NCBI GenBank assembly: GCA_951406725.2
Contig: OX597818.1
Location: 51,336,001 to 51,400,000 of the forward strand
Reading direction: 5' to 3'
Length of the DNA stretch: 64,000 bases
Source of the DNA: Octopus vulgaris
Taxonomy: Eukaryota
Part shown: positions 3,761 to 64,000 of the stretch, in pieces
Layout of the letters: each line of letters starts with the position of its first letter
How positions within the stretch are numbered: the stretch's first letter is position 1
Program-made: the position numbers and the translations under genes
Notes under the pieces: generated by a model
What the model was told of the DNA's origin: nothing
Databases searched by the model: none
The model's input: only the letters and a program-made list of their open reading frames with translations

Positions 3761-6700
3761 CCTGGCATTTGGTCTATTTTCTGTACATAGTGTTAATTGT
3801 ACATGTGCACCTTCTGCACACACACACACACACACACATACACACAAACCATTTTCCCTTCCCCTGATATTGCTGCACCTCTTATGTGACCATATTTTAC
3901 ACTGGGTACATCTTATGGAAGCAATTATCTTTTTAAACGTTTCTCATGTTTTCAAACTTAATGATCAAAATGGGATAATTTCCCTTAGGCTTTATACAAT
4001 AGTTTGACATTGAAAGGGATTTACAGTTTTAGAAACTGTAAATTAACTGCCTATACTTAGATTATATAGGCTTTGGAGTATGATCCTAGAAACATTTGCT
4101 TAGAACCAGGGATTTTGATAGGACTGCTCCTTTACTCGAAGCTAAGTTGAATATACCTTTGGAAATTTTAGTTTAGGCTTAAGCTTAAATTGTTTACCGT
4201 CTGCTTTCCATGCTAGCATGGGTTGGACGATTTGACTGAGCTCTGGTGAACCAGATGGCTGCGCCAGGCTCCAATCTGATCTGGCAGTTTCTACAGCTGG
4301 ATGCCTTTCCTAATGCCAACCACTCCAAGAGTGTAGTGGGTGCTTTTACGTGCCACCGGCATGAGGGCCAGTTTGGTGGTACTGGCAACAGCCATGCTCA
4401 AGTGGTGCTTTTTATGTGCCACCTGCACAGGAGCCAGTCCAGTGGCACTGGCAATGCCCTTGCTCGAATGTTTTTTCATGTGATATCATAAATGTTTAAA
4501 TGCTGATCTGTCTGCTTCCAGAGGTATATTCTCTATAGAGTGGACACAGTTTTAAGTCACTAAACTTACTGCATACCTGTCCATAGGAAACTGGCCCATT
4601 CAGATCATGAAACAGTCTTAAGTTGCTTAATATGCTGTATTAAGCTATTTGACACTTTCTTCTTACCTTCTTTCATTCAAACTATACCTTTACCAAAAAT
4701 AAAGCTTTTATGCATAACAAAGATTTTAATTCTACATCGGTAAACTTGCCATTAGGCATCTAATTGAATATGTCTACAAATTTTACTTGCAAAAATTTCT
4801 GGTTGATGTTTTGCACTTTCTGTACAAGTTTAGGAGTGTTTTATAGAAAGCCAACTAATTTCTTTAATTTGCTGTATCCTAATTTAATATGAATTTTTCC
4901 TGAAACTGCCTGTCTTAAATATCTTAAGCTAAAATTTCTATCAAAATCTTGTACAACTGAAACCATTCTCCTATGTACCAATATATAAAGCTAGATGGTT
5001 TAAAACCTTTTGATTGCATTACCTTGTTTCAGTTGAATGTGAAACTGGTTGGAAGTTGTTCCATTAATTTTTAATCTTGGACAAGAGCACCAGTGATAAT
5101 TAACAATGTTGGGATGATGGGATTTTTTAAGAATCATAACTGATCAGATAAGCACATGAAAAAGCACGGTTAAAAAGCTACAAAGACATGGGTTGGCTGT
5201 GGTTTCGGGGATATTTCAGTCTGAAGTGGAATGTGACAGGGTTTACCTTTTTTATGGATGACCTGTGAACAATTGTGGACTTGAAATTTAGAGAAGACAG
5301 CAGGAGTAGGTTGAGAATGGGGTTGCAACATAGTCCCTATGTTCTAGTTCTGGGACTAGCATAGCTAGAAAAGTTTCAGTGGTGAGAGTAATGAAGTTTG
5401 GGGAAAGCGAGAGGGTTAGTTGGGTGATGTATTAAAGGCAGTGGAATGTTTGAAGAAAGATTTGTGATTGGGAATTACAAGGAGGAAAACATATAGAGGG
5501 ACATAAAATGAGTGTTAGGGGATAATTGGAGACTAAGTTGTAGTTTAAATCTTTGCTCAGTGCTGGTGGCATTTAAAGAGCACCATCCAAATGTGGCCAA
5601 TACCAGTGGCCCCTGACTGGCTCCCATGCCAGTGACACGTAAAAAGCACTATCCAAACGTGATCGATGCCAGACCTGCCTGACTAGCTCCTGTGCTGGTG
5701 GCACGTAAAAAGTACCCACTACACTCTCGGAGTGGTTGGCATAAGGAAATGCATCTAGCTGTGGAAACATTGCCAGAACAGATTGGAGCCTAGTGCAGCT
5801 CCTGGCTTTCCAGACCTTAGTCCATTCCAGCATAGAAAATGGATCTTAAATGAGGAATAGCTAATTTTAATTATAGAAATACAGGATAGGAGAAAGTGTT
5901 TGGGTTCCATGTAAGTGATGACCTGGCCATTTTGTTAGGGTCAATGGAATGGTTAGTAATGTTAGTGTGTGAACAGTTAACTGGTTGATAGGTAGATAGG
6001 AATACACCAGGTGTCTACTAGGTGTACCATGTGATGGAGGTACTGGTTCAAAGCATATAGGGTTTACCATGGTGATTTCTGGTGTTAATGGTTTGGTTAG
6101 TGGTTGGATAGGCAAGAATGTATGGAGGCAAAATGTAGGTGGAAAGGGAATAAGTACTTAAATATATTCTGAGCTGAAGTGACTATAGTGTTGGAATGAA
6201 CTCTTAAATGTACAATGTGCCAAGTGTGATTGCTGAGAAAGAAGTGGTGTGAGGGGATTAATTGTGGTAGTTGAAGTATAAAGGGAAGTATAATGCTGAG
6301 CTAGATCTTGGGAATGGTGTGAAAATGCATCCCTGGTGGATCGATCTTGGCAACAGTAGTTAGTGAGATGCATGTGGAAGTTAGAGCTGAAAGGCATACT
6401 AATGAGGAAGGGAAGTGCCACTGAAAAGATGTGTGGGTGGAGCAACATGAAAGGCTGGGTAGAATGGTAAATGAGAATGTTTCAGTGAATAAACAGAGCC
6501 TTCCTGAGAAGACATGTAGTTCAGAAGAATGATAGGAAGAGACGGTGATGGATGTTGTGAAGAGGAATCTGAGATGACTGGGTTGTAAGATGGGGAATTA
6601 TGAAAGTGAATGTAGAAGTTGAAGACTCAAGATGTGGCTACAAGTGTTGGAGGAAATGAGGATTAGTGAAAAAGAATAGGGGTGAAATGGAGAACTCGTG

Positions 6701-6880
6701 AAGCTTGCAAGGCTGGCCTCTTATAAGAAGGAAAATGGCCTTAAAATACATGACAATATCCACTTGGATGTTGTCATGAAAGGGTTACGGTATATTATTT
6801 TATGTATGTGTAGTGAATATTACATGTTACCATATGTTTTCTTCAGAAAAATTAATCCATTTTTATTTTTATGTAATCAG

Positions 6881-7061
6881 TTACAGATAAACCAGTCCAT
6901 TATATTTTGTAATACGGCTCAAAGAGTAGAATTGTTAGCCAAAAAGATTACAGAACTTGGTTATTCTTGTTTCTATATTCATTCAAAAATGAATCAACAA
7001 CACAGAAACAGAGTTTTTCATGATTTTCGTCAGGGCCTTTGCAGGAATCTTGTCTGCTCAG
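6881..7061 (+). CDS. DDX6: DDX6 exon ([60 protein letters not shown])
   Basis: atcag acceptor, gtaagt donor; motif IV region closely matching DDX6. Confidence 0.97.
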
Positions 7062-8772
7062 GTAAGTAATTTCAAGGAAATATTGTCTTGGGCTTTTTCA
7101 TTACCAATTTGCTTGAATCCTATTTCTTCCATTTTTCCCAATCAGCTAACAGGAATCTTACGTTAATGAGTTCAATTGGTAAACATGTTATGTTTGTCAT
7201 TCTAATGTATATTGTAGTCCCTGAAATTTTCTCCAAACTACAAGGTTATCAAATATGCTTGTAATTGGTTTGGCAATCTCTCCTAAACTTATCTAAATTG
7301 CTCTATGTAGATACAAAAAAAACCACCTTTCACTCTCTTTAATACTGTCAGGTTGCAACCTAAACACTTTAAAAGTAATCTTATACTGATTTCATAAACG
7401 AGGATTTTTATGGGTTATAACTGCTTAAACAGATGAAATTGCAAATCTGAAGGAAACGTTTGTGCCTCACTGTCCAGTTATCAGCATACCATTAAAATCC
7501 TTAGTTGCTACATAGGCTGTTAATTTCTTGTCCCACAGACTGATGCCAAATTACCAAAACTGCAGTGGTAGTTCTCATTTACAGTTGTGAAATATCTTTA
7601 ACTGCTAGCCCTGGAATGCTAAATTACATGGAATTATATGCTTCTGCTACATGCAAAGCCAAGACTAGCTTAGTTTGTTTCTACTACTCCTAAATTGCTT
7701 ACTCTTTGTTATCCCTACAGTTGTCACCTTATGATCCTTTACTCAACATTCTTTACTCCCCAGAACTGCTACTGGGGATTCTTCTGCTTTATGCAACCCA
7801 TGGCCTACATATATTCAATCTAACTAGGTCATGGGAATTAGCCTTTAGCATCTAAACTGGCTAAATCCTGCCAAAATATTCTACTTGTTCAAACCAGCTA
7901 GATTGAGGTCTTTCATTTTTCAGTCATTTTAAAAATATACCTGATCAAAATCTTGAAGGTTCAAGATAAAGCCTGATTAATTCTCAAAAGTGAAATTGTA
8001 GTTGTGGACATTGTTGGAGGCACATAAAAAGCATCTTTTTAACATTGAGCCTCACAGAAGCAAGGGCAAATGACAGACCTTTTGACAATATGCTGTACTT
8101 GAGAAGACCCATCAAGCCAAGTGAAATAATAGTCGTGGCAGATACTGGTGTCATGCAAAAGCACCCATTACTCTCTTGGAGTGGTTGGTGTTAGGAAGGG
8201 CATCCAGCCATACAAAACCATGCCAAATCGGACTGGAGTCTGGTGCAGCCCCTCAGCTTACCAGCTCTGGTCAAACTAACCCATGCCACTTGGGTCAAAC
8301 TCAGATGTCCTACACAGCAGAAAAATGTGTTTGATGTTAACTACCTCAAATCAAATTAGACACTACTCCTGCTATACCAAGTTGGTGTAACTACCAGTTT
8401 TGTCAAAGCAAATTAGTGCTGCACTCACCTGGCAAATAAGATTAGTGGTTACTCCTGAGCTTGTAACTTTTTGGTTTGAATTATTGGTTTAGACCTTTGA
8501 CCTTAAATCAAATTGATTTAACAAGTTATCACTCACACCAGTTTTTTAAAATTCCAGGATTTCAGTAAATTTGCTAATCACATTTACTAATTTATATTTA
8601 ATTATCTAGTTTTCCTGTCTTAGGTGATTAAGTCACTTTCACATTTGAATGAGAGAATTTGTTATCTTAATTTGATAGTAAATTGTCTTCATCCTTTGAT
8701 GTCAAAGGATCTGGTCTATAGCAGTTTCACCAACTATATTGAATAGGTGGGGAAAATAGAACCTCTCTTCAA

Positions 8773-35519: not shown

Positions 35520-35653
35520 TTACATGGTGAAAATGTTGTCCACTGGTTCCCATGAGTTGTAACGATTGCTGTAACCTTTCCATTTGACCAAAACCTCTTG
35601 ATGACCTTTCTGCACACGTTTCTTTAAGACTTTCTCTACAATAAAAACCTCAC
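35520..35653 (-). CDS. Terminal exon encoding a chromodomain (SEVFIVEKVLKKRVQKGHQEVLVKWKGYSNRYNSWEPVDNIFTM*)
   Basis: Long pyrimidine tract plus ttccag acceptor; phase 1 matches the 55967 donor; VE....KR...G..E.LVKWKGY....NSWEP..NI chromodomain pattern; TAA at 35520-35522. Confidence 0.88.
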
Positions 35654-55966: not shown

Positions 55967-56803
55967 TTTCAGTTCCTGATTTGCCATCAGAATCTTTAGA
56001 CTTCTGTGATTTTGTGTTTTCTGATTCTTTCTTTTGAGATTTTGGTGTTTCAGGTTTTTTCTTTTCAACAAGAACACTGTCAGAAGATTTTTTGTCAGAT
56101 TTGGTCGTTTCTACAGGTTTAAACTTACTGTCCATTGGTTTGAATTTAGCACTCTCTATAGGTTTGAATTTAGCAATTTCTATGCCCTTAAACTTAGGGC
56201 TCTCCATAGGTTTGAATTGCATTGAATCAATTGGTTTAAATTTGGAAGCTTCAACAGATCTTGAACTGATGTCAAATTTGGCCACAGACTTGCTGTCCGA
56301 ATTCTGCTGAAAATCAGTCTTGGGCTGCTCAACAGGTTTCAGTGTCTCAACAGCCTTTTTAGATTTCTCTTCCAGAGCTTTCTGCTCTGAGCGTGCTAAT
56401 TCTAGAGCTTTTCGGCGACTGCTCCCAGAACCGAAAGTAGTTCTGTGCTGCAAGAATGCAGGGCTTGTGACAATGGGCTTGCTGCCAAACGCAGCGCTTT
56501 GTCTCATTTGTAAGGATTTATTGGGGTTTTGTGCCTGGGAACCCGTGTTTGAATTTGTAGTCATATACGAACTGTGTAAGAAAGACTCACTTCCTGGAGT
56601 GTTCCCTGAAGTCTGAAAGGCTTTTGGTAACGTTGAGAACTGAGGCTCAACTGTACCAAATTTTGGAACTTGATCTGGTTTAGTCTTTGAATCCATGTTC
56701 AACTCAAGTTGTGGACGTTCAGGTTCAAGCTGAGGTGGAGGAGGAGTGGAATTATTCCTTTTGTTGCCACTATTACCAAAACTGTCTGATTTTGTTCGGA
56801 GGT
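55967..56803 (-). CDS. GTF2I-repeat/chromodomain gene exon: 837-nt K/S/P-rich low-complexity linker
   Basis: Lies within the longest ORF in the window (288 aa); tttcag acceptor, gtaagt donor, phase 1-1. Confidence 0.9.
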
Positions 56804-59434: not shown

Positions 59435-59568
59435 CTTTATTAGGTTGTGTGTCATTGGACTGAGCAGGTAAAGTAGGAGGCGGTAAATTGTTCTCTGTGG
59501 ATTCTGTACTCGTATTTTCTTTCTTTGGCGTCGGGTTAGAAGTGACTTTCTTTTTGTTTGGCTGTGGA
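59435..59568 (-). CDS. GTF2I-repeat/chromodomain gene exon: linker (PQPNKKKVTSNPTPKKENTSTESTENNLPPPTLPAQSNDTQPNK)
   Basis: gttcag acceptor, gtgaga donor, 134 nt phase 2-1, in frame with both neighbours; basic NLS-like clusters. Confidence 0.85.
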
Positions 59569-59896
59569 CTGAACAAACAAACAAACAGAAAATAAACAAA
59601 CGATCAATGTAAATTAAAAAAATAAACATAAGTTACCTGACTAAAACCAGCGAAAGAATAAAACAAAACCTACGCATGGTTATCTTTTTATGATTACTTC
59701 TCCGCTCCATGTTTGACTGAGCTGGAACGGATCTGACTCTCATGAAGTGTATTGCCAGTTATTGCAATCTTCCATCATCTCCTACATGTTGTTCAGCCCC
59801 ATGAGATCAGCTATTGCCGGTTCTTTCCACAATTCTTCCAAATGGATGGTTTAGCATATAATTAACCCAACTGTCATCTTCCATATACAACACATA

Positions 59897-60408
59897 CCAT
59901 AAATCCTCGAGGATAATCCGCATTTTCCCCCCAAAGTTTAAAGGTCAAAATCCCTAGTGCGTACTATATACGAGGTTAAAAATGAAAGATATTTTCTAAG
60001 CAATGTCCAAGTCTCTATTTGCTGTCCAGCAATGTTTATTCAGACGCATTTTGTGATGTCGGGCGCGAAAATACCTTAAGCTAAGCCTGAAAGCAATGAA
60101 GTCATAAAAGAATCATCCATAACTTGCAATAAGCAACATTTATTAAACGTTATTACTGTTATTTCTTTATTTTCTGCAAACAAAATGCCCAAAAAAGCTA
60201 CACTTTTGCATTATGTTATATATACAATAACAATAAAAGACGTTACCGTATACATTTTTACAAACCAAGGATGTTATATAGACCTCCTTGACTCAAGTTA
60301 GAGAAGGGGTGCGTATTATACACAAGGTTTAGGTTTTTCAGAGGTACAGCCCCCTAAATATCTCCTGTGTATTATACTCAAGGGCGGACTATACTTGAGG
60401 ATTTACGG
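59897..60408. mobile_element. Tc1/mariner (pogo-like) MITE
   Basis: TA-ccataaatcctcgaggataatccgc...gcggactatacttgaggatttacgg-TA; TA target duplication. Confidence 0.8.
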
Positions 60409-60867
60409 TATTTATCATCATCATTTAATGTCTGCTTTCCATGCTAGCATGGGTTGAACGATTTGACTGAGGACAGGCGAACCAGATGGCTGCACCAGGC
60501 TCCAATCTTGATCTGGGGCTAAACACAGAGAGGACAAACAAGGACAGACAAATGGATTAAGTCGATTATATCGACCCCAGTGCGTAACTAGTACTTATTT
60601 AATCGACCCCGAAAGGATGAAAGGCAAAGTTGACCTTGGCGGAATTTGAACTCAGAACGTAACTGCAGACGAAATACCACTAAGCATTTCGCCTGGTGTG
60701 CTAACGTTTCTACCAGCTCACTGCCTTTGGAAATATATAACCAACAGCGCTACTGTCCACTAAATGTAATATAAAACATTAAATAAAGAGCCTGCTCTTC
60801 AACATTTATTGTCTGTATCAGGGCACCTGATTGTCTTGTACACATTGGCTGATGTTGTCAGTACTTT

Positions 60868-61245
60868 GGGTGCAGGAGTGGCTGTGTGGTAAGTAGCTTG
60901 CTTCCCAACCACATGGTTCTGAGCACCTTGGGCAAGCGTCTTCTACTATAAGCCTCGGGCCGACCAAAGCCTTGTAAGTGGATTTGGTAGATGGAAACTG
61001 AAAGAAGCCTGTCATATATATGTATATGTATGTGTGTGTTTGTGTGTCTGTGTTTGTTCTCCCCCAACATCGCTTGACAACCGATGCTGTTGTGTTTATG
61101 TCCCCGTAACTTAGCGGTTCGGCAAAAAGCGACCGATAGAATAAGTACAAGGCTTACAAAGAATAAGTCCTGGGGTTGATTTCCTCAACTAAAGGCTGGT
61201 GCTCCAGCATAACCGCAGTCAAATGACTGAAACAAGTAAAAGAGT
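60868..61245 (+). mobile_element. Family A SINE
   Basis: Head, microsatellite and tail as in the other family A copies. Confidence 0.85.
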
Positions 61246-61748
61246 ACACTATTTTCACTTAGTTTCTCCTGTGAGTTAACACTGACATCAGTCACAGACA
61301 AACTGCAGCTCACAGAACTTCTGAATGGTACACCTAATGAAAAATTACCTTGAATTTTGTTTAGTGGCATGGTCTGCTTAACGTTGAGCCACCTCTCACG
61401 TGGTCCCTTGAAAAGGGTTGCTTCATGTCAGATTTATACAATGAATCATATACAAATTACTTCCCTCAAGACACTGCAGAATTTCTAAATTTGGTGCCCA
61501 AGTCTTGCTACCTTTTCTTACTGAAGATACTATAATAATAACTGTGGCAGGGGTGGTGGTCATGGTTGTAATAGTAGTAGTTGTTGTCATTGTCATTTAC
61601 TGTCTATTTTTCATACTCAAGAGGAGCCGACATACTAGAGTATAGTGTCAAGTTCCAATACCTGCTTTGGTATAGTTTCTACAGCTGGATGCCCTTCCAA
61701 ACACCAAATATTATTTTGGTAAATACTTCTTTAAGCAGTATAACTTAC

Positions 61749-61926
61749 TTCTTTAGGTGAAACTGGATTTTTTCAGAAGCATTTAAAATTTTCCGAAGAT
61801 CCGATATTCCATAGGACTGTGGTCTTTTTAGGATAATGCCATCCGGGAAGCCCTCAATGTCGATAAACATAGGATCTTTTTCCAGTTTAACATATGGCAT
61901 GGTCCGAGTACTGCCGCAACATAAAG
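61749..61926 (-). CDS. GTF2I-repeat/chromodomain gene exon: I-repeat core (SLCCGSTRTMPYVKLEKDPMFIDIEGFPDGIILKRPQSYGISDLRKILNASEKIQFHLKN)
   Basis: pyrimidine tract plus ccag acceptor, gtaagt donor, 178 nt phase 1-2; PY..P...IEG(F)PDGI..(K)RP.SYGI..L.KIL.....I.F pattern of the GTF2I repeat. Confidence 0.9.
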
Positions 61927-62213
61927 CTGGTAGCGAAAAGGATAAGAAAATAAGTGAGCAGAATAGATAGATATATAGACAAAGAGAAGAGTGAAAGTGG
62001 AAGATTAACAGTTTTAGAAGTTGAATATTGCCAGGATTATTGGGTGTGTAAATACAGTTGAGGGAAACTAGCAATTAATATGAAGGTGAGTCAATTTCAG
62101 TAAATATGAAAACCAAGATCAGAAATTTCAAATGGAGCTATTTTCCCTTCCAAAATATTTTTAATGTTTTCTCTTTTAAAACTGGATTCCACCCACCAAA
62201 TCTAATAGGTATT

Positions 62214-62585
62214 TTGACTCGACTTGACTTGAGACAGCATGCACCCGGGGTGGGTTGAGCTGGCTTCATTCATCCTCAATGCTGCATCTCTCACAAACGC
62301 CGACCCAGACCTGGCGATTTGAGGCTAACGACCACGTGATCTCCAACCACTCCTTATTCCAGTGGCGAACGCCGTAGATATGGGGGCCTGGGTTGGGTTC
62401 CAGATCAGCCTCGACTGTCATCAGCCAGGTTTTTCGTTGTCCATCACATCACTTTCGCCAACCCTGAAGGGGAGCCGGGGCAATTGCTTCGTAGATGAAT
62501 TCTCCTGGTTGACGACGGAGGGCATGACCCAGCCAACGCAGACATCTCATTAGGATGACTTGTTGGGGGGAGGTGATTCTGCACT
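62214..62585 (-). mobile_element. RTE-clade LINE 3' end with a (CAAGT)n tail
   Basis: Minus translation LRWLGHALRRQP...GQRKTW..TVEADL; GC-rich; tail tcaagtcaagtcgagtcaa. Confidence 0.75.
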
Positions 62586-63247
62586 ATTAAAGGCTCGCCA
62601 AGCCTTCAATAGGTATTTTAGTGATTACTAGTAATGCAGCCTTGTAGGATAATACAATATAAGCATACTTTACTACCAAATGACTCAATATGCCTAAATA
62701 AAAACTGAAATAGGTTCATACTCTCTTCAACACTGATGTAATCTAAAGAAAGGATATGGTATCCGTGTTGAGATGCAGGAGTCGTCAGAGAAACACTGGG
62801 AATTCACTAGACTGCTTTAACCCTTTTGTGACCATATTTCTGTTAAGATGCTCTGTGTTTCTTTCAATTAATTTTAAATATAACAAAGAATTTAGTAAAA
62901 TAACTTAGTTATCATTAAGCTAGTGTTAGGAACATAAATTGTGACTAAGGTTTGGTAGAAGATTTTAATTCAAAACTTATGAAAACAGGACATTTGTACT
63001 ACAGAGCCAGGGGCGGTTTCAGGCAGGTTGGTATCAAAAGGGTTAAGGACTCCAGTACCAAGTTAACAATTCTGATCTCTTCTGGTAATCAGAGTCACAG
63101 TTCATAACTAAAGAAGGAGCCTCAACATCAGTTGCAACATCACATAATGTTTCCTCCTCATCACCTATCCAAATGATAAGATGTAATTTGAGTGTGTGTG
63201 TGGCTCTTTTATAAATCTGAAATAAAGTGTTATGAAAATGGACTCAC

Positions 63248-63325
63248 AAAACTTCTCATTGAATAAGGCCTTCACTTCTTCTGCAAGCTTCTTACGATTG
63301 TTTTTGGGCTGATCTTTGCCCTTGG
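63248..63325 (-). CDS. GTF2I-repeat/chromodomain gene exon: N-terminal part of the I-repeat (KGKDQPKNNRKKLAEEVKALFNEKF)
   Basis: tttcag acceptor, gtgagt donor, phase 1-1; L..EV..LFNEKF matches the start of a TFII-I I-repeat. Confidence 0.88.
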
Positions 63326-64000
63326 CTGAAACGAATAAAAGAAGAGAAAATATTTTTAGTCTATACAAATCACAGTTCATAGCGTGAGTGATTTAATTAA
63401 TTAACTAAAGCTGTATGAAACAAACTATTTTATTAATAATTCAAAGGAAACAAGTAATATAAATAAATGCAGTTAATTGTTTTTCTTTTTTAAGGAAATT
63501 TCTGTAGTGAGGAAAAATAAAGCCATCAATGTTTTGGATATAGTTTCTCTTCTCTGAGAGACAAAACAGTGAAGAGGAAAGATTTACACAAAATAATGGC
63601 AATAATGGTAGAATGGTGGAGGCAGCGGCCCAAGGAATTGAAATGGTGAGCTAACTATGAGAAGTAGAGTTATAAGTCTATATAGAATATATAACAGTGG
63701 TTTTGGTAAGATTTGAACTTATGCATATATAGTCAATAGTTTAGTAGTAAGTATTCTTAACTCAGTAATTAAAAAAAAGTGTCAACAAAAGAAGCTAAAT
63801 AAAATGCTAATTCCTAATGTCAAGAATCCTGGTTCAGCCACAGGTTCATAACACTAGGCTTCATTATGTTATCTTTTACTCCATTACTCCGTCACATTTT
63901 TACTCCATTTACTCTGTCACTTAGCAGTTCGGCAAAAGAGACCGATAGAATAAGTACTGGGCTTACAAAGAATAAGTCCCGGGGTCGATTTGCTCGACTA

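Follow-up and report, generated by a model that had tools for sequence, protein, structure and literature searches.

The 64,000-nucleotide (nt) stretch of Octopus vulgaris DNA analysed here (the window; positions 51336001-51400000 of contig OX597818.1) carries on its minus strand part of a gene encoding an I-repeat, the repeated domain of the TFII-I proteins, and with the flanks extended by 99 kb this gene was resolved into 11 coding exons spanning 118 kb, with an open frame of 1265 amino acids (aa). The gene is spliced, single-copy and conserved among cephalopods. We consider it probable that it encodes a homodimeric chromatin-binding transcription regulator, that it shares with TFII-I a founding module of likely pre-bilaterian age, and that this module was tamed from a transposon passenger. 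TFII-I has been called vertebrate-specific (PMC10721858), and the repeat fold, d.288, appears among the synapomorphies of jawed vertebrates, Gnathostomata (PMC9541633); in the literature outside subscription journals no paper was found that deals with I-repeats of invertebrates or with a MADS-like N-terminus of TFII-I. Invertebrate matches are already in databases, and what is new is an intact, conserved host gene together with a predicted MADS-like fold. The parts of the gene are as follows (minus strand throughout, window numbering continued past 64,000).

Exon 1, 153607-151939, minus strand: low-complexity N-terminus.
Exon 2, 72729-72554, minus strand.
Exons 3 and 4, 70571-70401 and 67386-67293, minus strand: HDX-type homeodomain.
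Exon 5, 66347-66163, minus strand.
Exon 6, 64384-64243 (contig 51400243-51400384), 142 nt, phase 0-1, minus strand: most of the dimerisation block found at the N-terminus of TFII-I, from its Cys.
Intron 6, 917 nt, phase 1, minus strand: 63326..64000 is the part inside the window, the upstream exons lying beyond the window end.
Exon 7 (exon A), 63325-63248, 78 nt, phase 1-1, minus strand: linker and helix 1 of the I-repeat.
Phase-1 intron, 61927..63247, 1321 nt, minus strand: after F-N-E-K-F, a position common to vertebrate repeats and cnidarian-clade loci.
Exon 8 (exon B), 61926-61749, exactly 178 nt, phase 1-2, donor GTAAGT, minus strand: I-repeat core.
Phase-2 intron, 59569..61748, 2180 nt, minus strand: in the codon before the final Pro, a position as in vertebrate repeats and absent from cnidarian-clade loci.
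Exon 9, 59568-59435, 134 nt, minus strand: its start completes N, then P.
Exon 10, 55967..56803, 837 nt, minus strand: long linker.
Exon 11, the last coding exon, 35520..35653, minus strand: Polycomb/CBX-type chromodomain, then stop; linked to exon 10 through proteins P0002-P0006.

The sequence-only reading had placed two exons of the repeat at 63325-63248 and 61926-61749, divided by a phase-1 and followed by a phase-2 intron, and the coordinates and GT-AG ends agree with this. Exon 7, which ends in ...LAEEVKALFNEKF plus one base before the donor GTGAGT, is joined on both sides in all four RNA-like runs, which are presumed to be RNA though not recorded as such; the joint between 63248 and 61926 (skipping 1321 nt, GT-AG) stands in assembled contigs of each run, and the same contig passes from 61749 to 59564 with a 4-base gap that corresponds to 59565-59568. 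Exons 2-10 are covered by one assembled record from these runs.

The protein consists of a low-complexity region (residues 1-621), a homeodomain-like region (622-685), a 62-aa block (752-813), one I-repeat (825-900) and a chromodomain (1223-1265). Exon B matches Pfam GTF2I (PF02946) at 55.2 bits, against a cut-off of 27 and with 56.6 for the spliced ortholog, all ten of its sequence matches in the PDB are I-repeats (best E 7.5e-9), and the ESM Atlas gave no usable match. In a comparison set beforehand as a possible refutation, the predicted structure superposes on solved I-repeats at a root-mean-square deviation of 1.5-2.0 A, and the 2-residue deletion proposed from the length of the exon is visible in the alignment with 2dzq/2dzr/2ed2. 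The homeodomain is HDX-type (35.5 bits versus a shuffle maximum of 4.2); the octopus homeodomain exon alone matches weakly to 2da4 (E 0.072), whose product, DKFZp686K21156, we take to be HDX. An HMG box is absent between homeodomain and block (1.0 bit versus a shuffle maximum of 2.7), on a profile that scored 15-45 bits in three family members outside its seed set and below 4 in three others. The chromodomain best matches CBX4/CBX8 (E 2e-12) and keeps the aromatic cage F/W/Y, but differs from those of Polycomb/CBX proteins in being C-terminal and truncated, without the C-terminal helix.

One match was found in the 2.8-Gb genome by protein and profile searches. Orthologs are present in five cephalopod-type records, the named matches being octopods and a cuttlefish; word-based homolog searches recovered solely cephalopod-type proteins, and neither these nor the profile searches found a close ortholog outside coleoid cephalopods. 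Identity to three decapod-type proteins is 59/62 in the block, 56-57/76 in the repeat and 38/43 in the chromodomain, as against 20-21/66 in the linker before the block, and conservation so far above that of the linker indicates purifying selection.

The block, which the sequence-only reading did not note, also ties this gene to TFII-I, where an N-terminal 'leucine zipper' block likewise precedes repeat 1 (domain layout and dimerisation role in PMC8155576, PMC5343945, PMC3438194 and PMC2865459). A hidden Markov model (HMM) built from 22 vertebrate N-termini only gave the cephalopods 33 bits without gaps, with 20.7 for the next non-vertebrate and 7.2 for the best of 2000 shuffles, and up to 25/62 positions are identical to GTF2IRD1-type blocks in a gapless alignment. 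Judged from sequence, the octopus block and repeat are homologous to those of GTF2I/GTF2IRD1. The block itself is predicted to adopt the SRF/MCM1-type MADS dimerisation fold, arranged as in NRF1: with the SRF/MCM1 core and NRF1/EWG (1mnm, 1k6o, 8k4l) it would share a helix, a beta-hairpin, two short helices and an antiparallel dimer, NRF1 was the first Foldseek match after the ten I-repeats (E 0.028), and hhalign scored block against NRF1 dimerisation domain at 20.1, a value reached by none of 30 column-shuffled controls. No match to the SRF-TF Pfam family was obtained at E 0.1 in five orthologs. In NRF1, too, a dimerisation domain of this kind stands ahead of a distinct DNA-binding domain (PMC10810270), and some I-repeats bind RGATTR sequence-specifically (PMC3438194); sequence homology between the repeat and the NRF1 DNA-binding domain was not significant in comparisons of which the first two used an NRF1 master lacking an exon. 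The octopus NRF1/P3A2 gene lies at C4:150155331-150162751, where annotated proteins P0186 and P0187 lack an exon present in P0188.

The sequence-only reading had stated that vertebrate I-repeats are split at the same two positions. This was the second possible refutation set beforehand, and the statement agrees with protein matches that read through introns, an indirect measure in which the rows depend partly on one another and count as vertebrate on the strength of their sequence. Helix 1 is missing from 21/135 vertebrate-type repeats, which begin abruptly 27 residues before the conserved Gly, the preceding residue fitting a YAG acceptor in 20 of the 21, and P0152 differs from P0012 by a Ser-to-Gly change, as expected of a phase-1 acceptor. 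At the other end, 34 of 128 vertebrate-type repeats with an intact end depart right after position +34, with a T-first-compatible codon next in 32 and W, Y, C or stop in 25, as predicted for a phase-2 GT donor. The vertebrate-type core exon so delimited has 62 codons (184 nt), compared with 60 codons (178 nt) in octopus; human I-repeat core exons are 184 nt long. Within the block, one GTF2IRD1-type row (P0092) has M-V-S where the phase-0 donor falls and C-R-K-Y where the phase-1 donor falls, and another (P0012) has Q-C at the acceptor; in GTF2I the downstream block donor may sit one codon earlier. Octopus and vertebrates likely share all four intron positions of block and repeat. A reported GTF2I-BRAF breakpoint (PMC5407815) was no help in exon mapping.

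Three of these four introns were found at DNA level among 19 metagenome loci related to the cnidarian clade, the unspliced ones representing some three gene types: the phase-0 acceptor at the block Cys position in 10 loci, the phase-1 donor at the block end in 8 and off by a base in one more, and the phase-1 donor after K-K-Y in 11, of which 5 are spliced. The intron before Pro was absent from these loci. In a transcript-like contig (L019:87-1373) the phase 1-1 exon with helix 1 of the repeat is skipped in frame.

A profile of four cephalopod block-plus-repeat stretches, run against 1.84 billion proteins, gave 152 matches, and among the best 150 of these vertebrate GTF2I-type proteins match over both block and repeat. 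Thirty were picked for diversity, and the 26 with names comprise 20 from invertebrates, three single-repeat proteins of ray-finned fish and three of vertebrate TFII-I type, the invertebrate carriers being Dendronephthya, Clytia, Priapulus, Pecten, Mercenaria, Patella, Pomacea, five echinoderm genera, Branchiostoma and three tunicates; some sea cucumber, amphioxus, tunicate and snail proteins are already named 'GTF2I repeat domain-containing'. A Pfam scan of 92 matches found GTF2I in 89 at E 0.01, a chromodomain over cut-off in 11 and many weak homeodomain and HMG signals, and the family profile matches 2da4 (E 2.8e-14), TFAM HMG boxes and CBX chromodomains. With this single-repeat family (homeodomain, HMG box, block, I-repeat, often chromo/PHD) the octopus gene shares domain order, HDX-type homeodomain, C-terminal chromodomain and three introns; it differs in lacking the HMG box, in being single-copy and conserved where many relatives are multicopy, and in being about three times longer. 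Near-identical copies at dispersed loci include a 16-member cluster in Dendronephthya, nine members each in Apostichopus and Clavelina and four in Cololabis. The spacing PY-x13-G was considered as a special octopus-vertebrate feature and rejected, as it occurs in 35/71 rows.

In the ray-finned fish Cottoperca, Cololabis and Amia, P0039, P0146, P0084 and their kin represent another type, which has one repeat, falls outside the TFII-I clade, is multicopy in Cololabis and is likely mobile. The P0048 cluster of the poison frog Phyllobates comprises several short GTF2I-like copies of block plus one repeat on different contigs. Tandem I-repeats also occur in echinoderms, four in P0020 (Anneissia, with a C2H2 zinc-finger array) and two in P0080 (Lytechinus), a multiplication likely independent of that in vertebrates.

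The age claimed for the repeat, earlier than the protostome-deuterostome split, is supported and was probably too modest, since the family reaches cnidarians and includes the N-terminal block; its proposed basis calls for a caveat, because a good number of the relatives seem to be mobile and introns inside a transposon would travel between species with it, which means that shared introns alone give no date. The age follows instead from phyletic breadth and deep divergence, and as the octopus gene encodes block and repeat, likely with the same four introns, the module is likely far older than vertebrates.

Trees place the octopus gene outside the vertebrate TFII-I clade on each of three alignments. 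In the combined tree (71 rows and 136 columns, 18 near-duplicates or fragments and four short rows having been dropped) vertebrates are supported at 100/99 and cephalopods at 100/100; the block-only tree (69 rows, 62 columns) has a vertebrate clade at 100/95 without cephalopods, and the repeat-only tree (78 rows) unites 23 vertebrate repeats at 100/99. An origin of the octopus gene from a crown jawed-vertebrate gene is, on the sequences compared, excluded. True orthology with GTF2I, GTF2IRD1 and GTF2IRD2, which would require one host gene, established in the common ancestor of bilaterians, to have disappeared from most other lineages, is possible but doubtful: cephalopods are sister to vertebrates alone in 350/400 bootstrap trees of the block, which also scores next to vertebrates on the HMM, octopus and vertebrates alone showed the intron before Pro, and a joint clade is not rejected in the combined alignment (approximately unbiased test, p 0.381), yet that clade is missing from the maximum-likelihood tree, the block tree uses 62 columns only, the repeat groups cephalopods with Priapulus P0069, and not with vertebrates, in 238/400 trees, and no close ortholog was found outside coleoids. 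Horizontal transfer of one element, either from a fish or between cephalopods and vertebrates at an early stage (the stem in vertebrates), could account for shared introns without ancient vertical descent and for the vertebrate-like block and fourth intron, and the relatives in fish, corals, sea cucumbers and tunicates are indeed multicopy and patchily distributed; it is made improbable by the exclusion of cephalopods from the vertebrate clade in all trees, by identities of just some 30-40%, by a homeodomain and chromodomain which fit the invertebrate architecture and not GTF2I, and by a single-copy gene of 118 kb. Convergence, chance or contamination of the assembly with vertebrate DNA can be practically discounted, given two adjacent homologous domains in the same order, on a 147-Mb contig, with orthologs in five cephalopod-type records and spliced contigs in four runs.

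The remaining alternative, which we regard as rather unlikely, is that the family has no transposon past and consists of normal host transcription factors of ancient origin that expanded in particular lineages. The homeodomain, HMG box and chromodomain are all of host type, and a transposase-associated domain was seen in only one of 19 fetched loci, these being short contigs with seven open reading frames (ORFs) scanned; that one (L020), however, carries a KDZ-associated CxC1 ORF on the opposite strand, the element ends being out of view, and the dispersed near-identical copies and a star-like tree at odds with species relationships also speak against it. KDZ transposase (PF18758) had no match in the octopus genome in a search whose controls gave no match either, and a single-copy gene of 118 kb argues against a current element. 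Loci L023-L027, which are near-identical, bear a Cys/His-rich ORF that runs tail-to-tail against the repeat gene from the opposite strand (e.g. L025:1996-3042); this ORF has no Pfam match and may be an element gene; L025 also carries an intact 1243-aa LINE ORF2. In P0043 (Erpetoichthys, Polypterus) and P0036 (Albula) the TFII-I block and one repeat are fused to a Tigger/CENP-B-type transposase (DDE_1) or DUF3504, which would be further transposase captures beside the Charlie8 of GTF2IRD2 but could be gene-model fusions. Non-mammalian 'GTF2IRD2' names often denote hAT transposases without a repeat (PMC10641963), which is not the case here.

On the reading of a tamed transposon passenger, an ancestral homeodomain-HMG-block-repeat-chromo gene would have ridden KDZ-type DNA transposons, cephalopods would have fixed one copy and lost the HMG box, and vertebrates would have fixed only block and repeat, dropping the remaining domains while the repeat, as a unit of two exons, rose to 5-6 copies. 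In the octopus protein the MADS-like block is predicted to dimerise by antiparallel packing of helices and by a beta-sheet formed across both chains, and the dimer may offer DNA a pair of I-repeats and a pair of HDX-type homeodomains, by analogy with the two DNA-binding domains of NRF1, while the chromodomain would read methylated histone H3 (K9 or K27) and the low-complexity N-terminus could recruit cofactors. The vertebrate proteins (GTF2I, GTF2IRD1, GTF2IRD2; PF02946; 2dzq, 2d99, 1q60) are alike in having block then I-repeat, the same repeat fold and, from indirect evidence, four intron positions; unlike them, the octopus protein has one repeat instead of 2-6, an internal block, an added homeodomain and chromodomain and a 620-aa low-complexity N-terminus. 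It likely works like a one-repeat TFII-I, but strictly it stands outside the vertebrate family. More speculatively, TFII-I, long regarded as a vertebrate invention carrying a leucine zipper and helix-loop-helix repeats, might derive from a transposon passenger older than bilaterians that was put together in the manner of NRF1, from a MADS-type dimerisation domain and a DNA-binding domain sharing ancestry with that of NRF1; the octopus version, tamed independently or jointly, with one repeat and coupled to a Polycomb-type chromodomain, might then be the closest living model of a proto-TFII-I.

GTF2I and GTF2IRD1 lead the candidate genes for the social and craniofacial features of Williams syndrome, and the literature counts them as vertebrate-specific (PMC10721858). 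An intact one-repeat cephalopod gene bears on the origin of the family and offers a minimal unit to assay in a large-brained invertebrate model, and reading the 'leucine zipper' as MADS-type gives a directly testable structural hypothesis for TFII-I homo- and heterodimers.

Elsewhere in the window, an open frame at 6686-7066 on the plus strand, part of a neighbouring gene on the strand opposite to the I-repeat gene, contains an exon that resembles the DDX6/Me31B RNA helicase.
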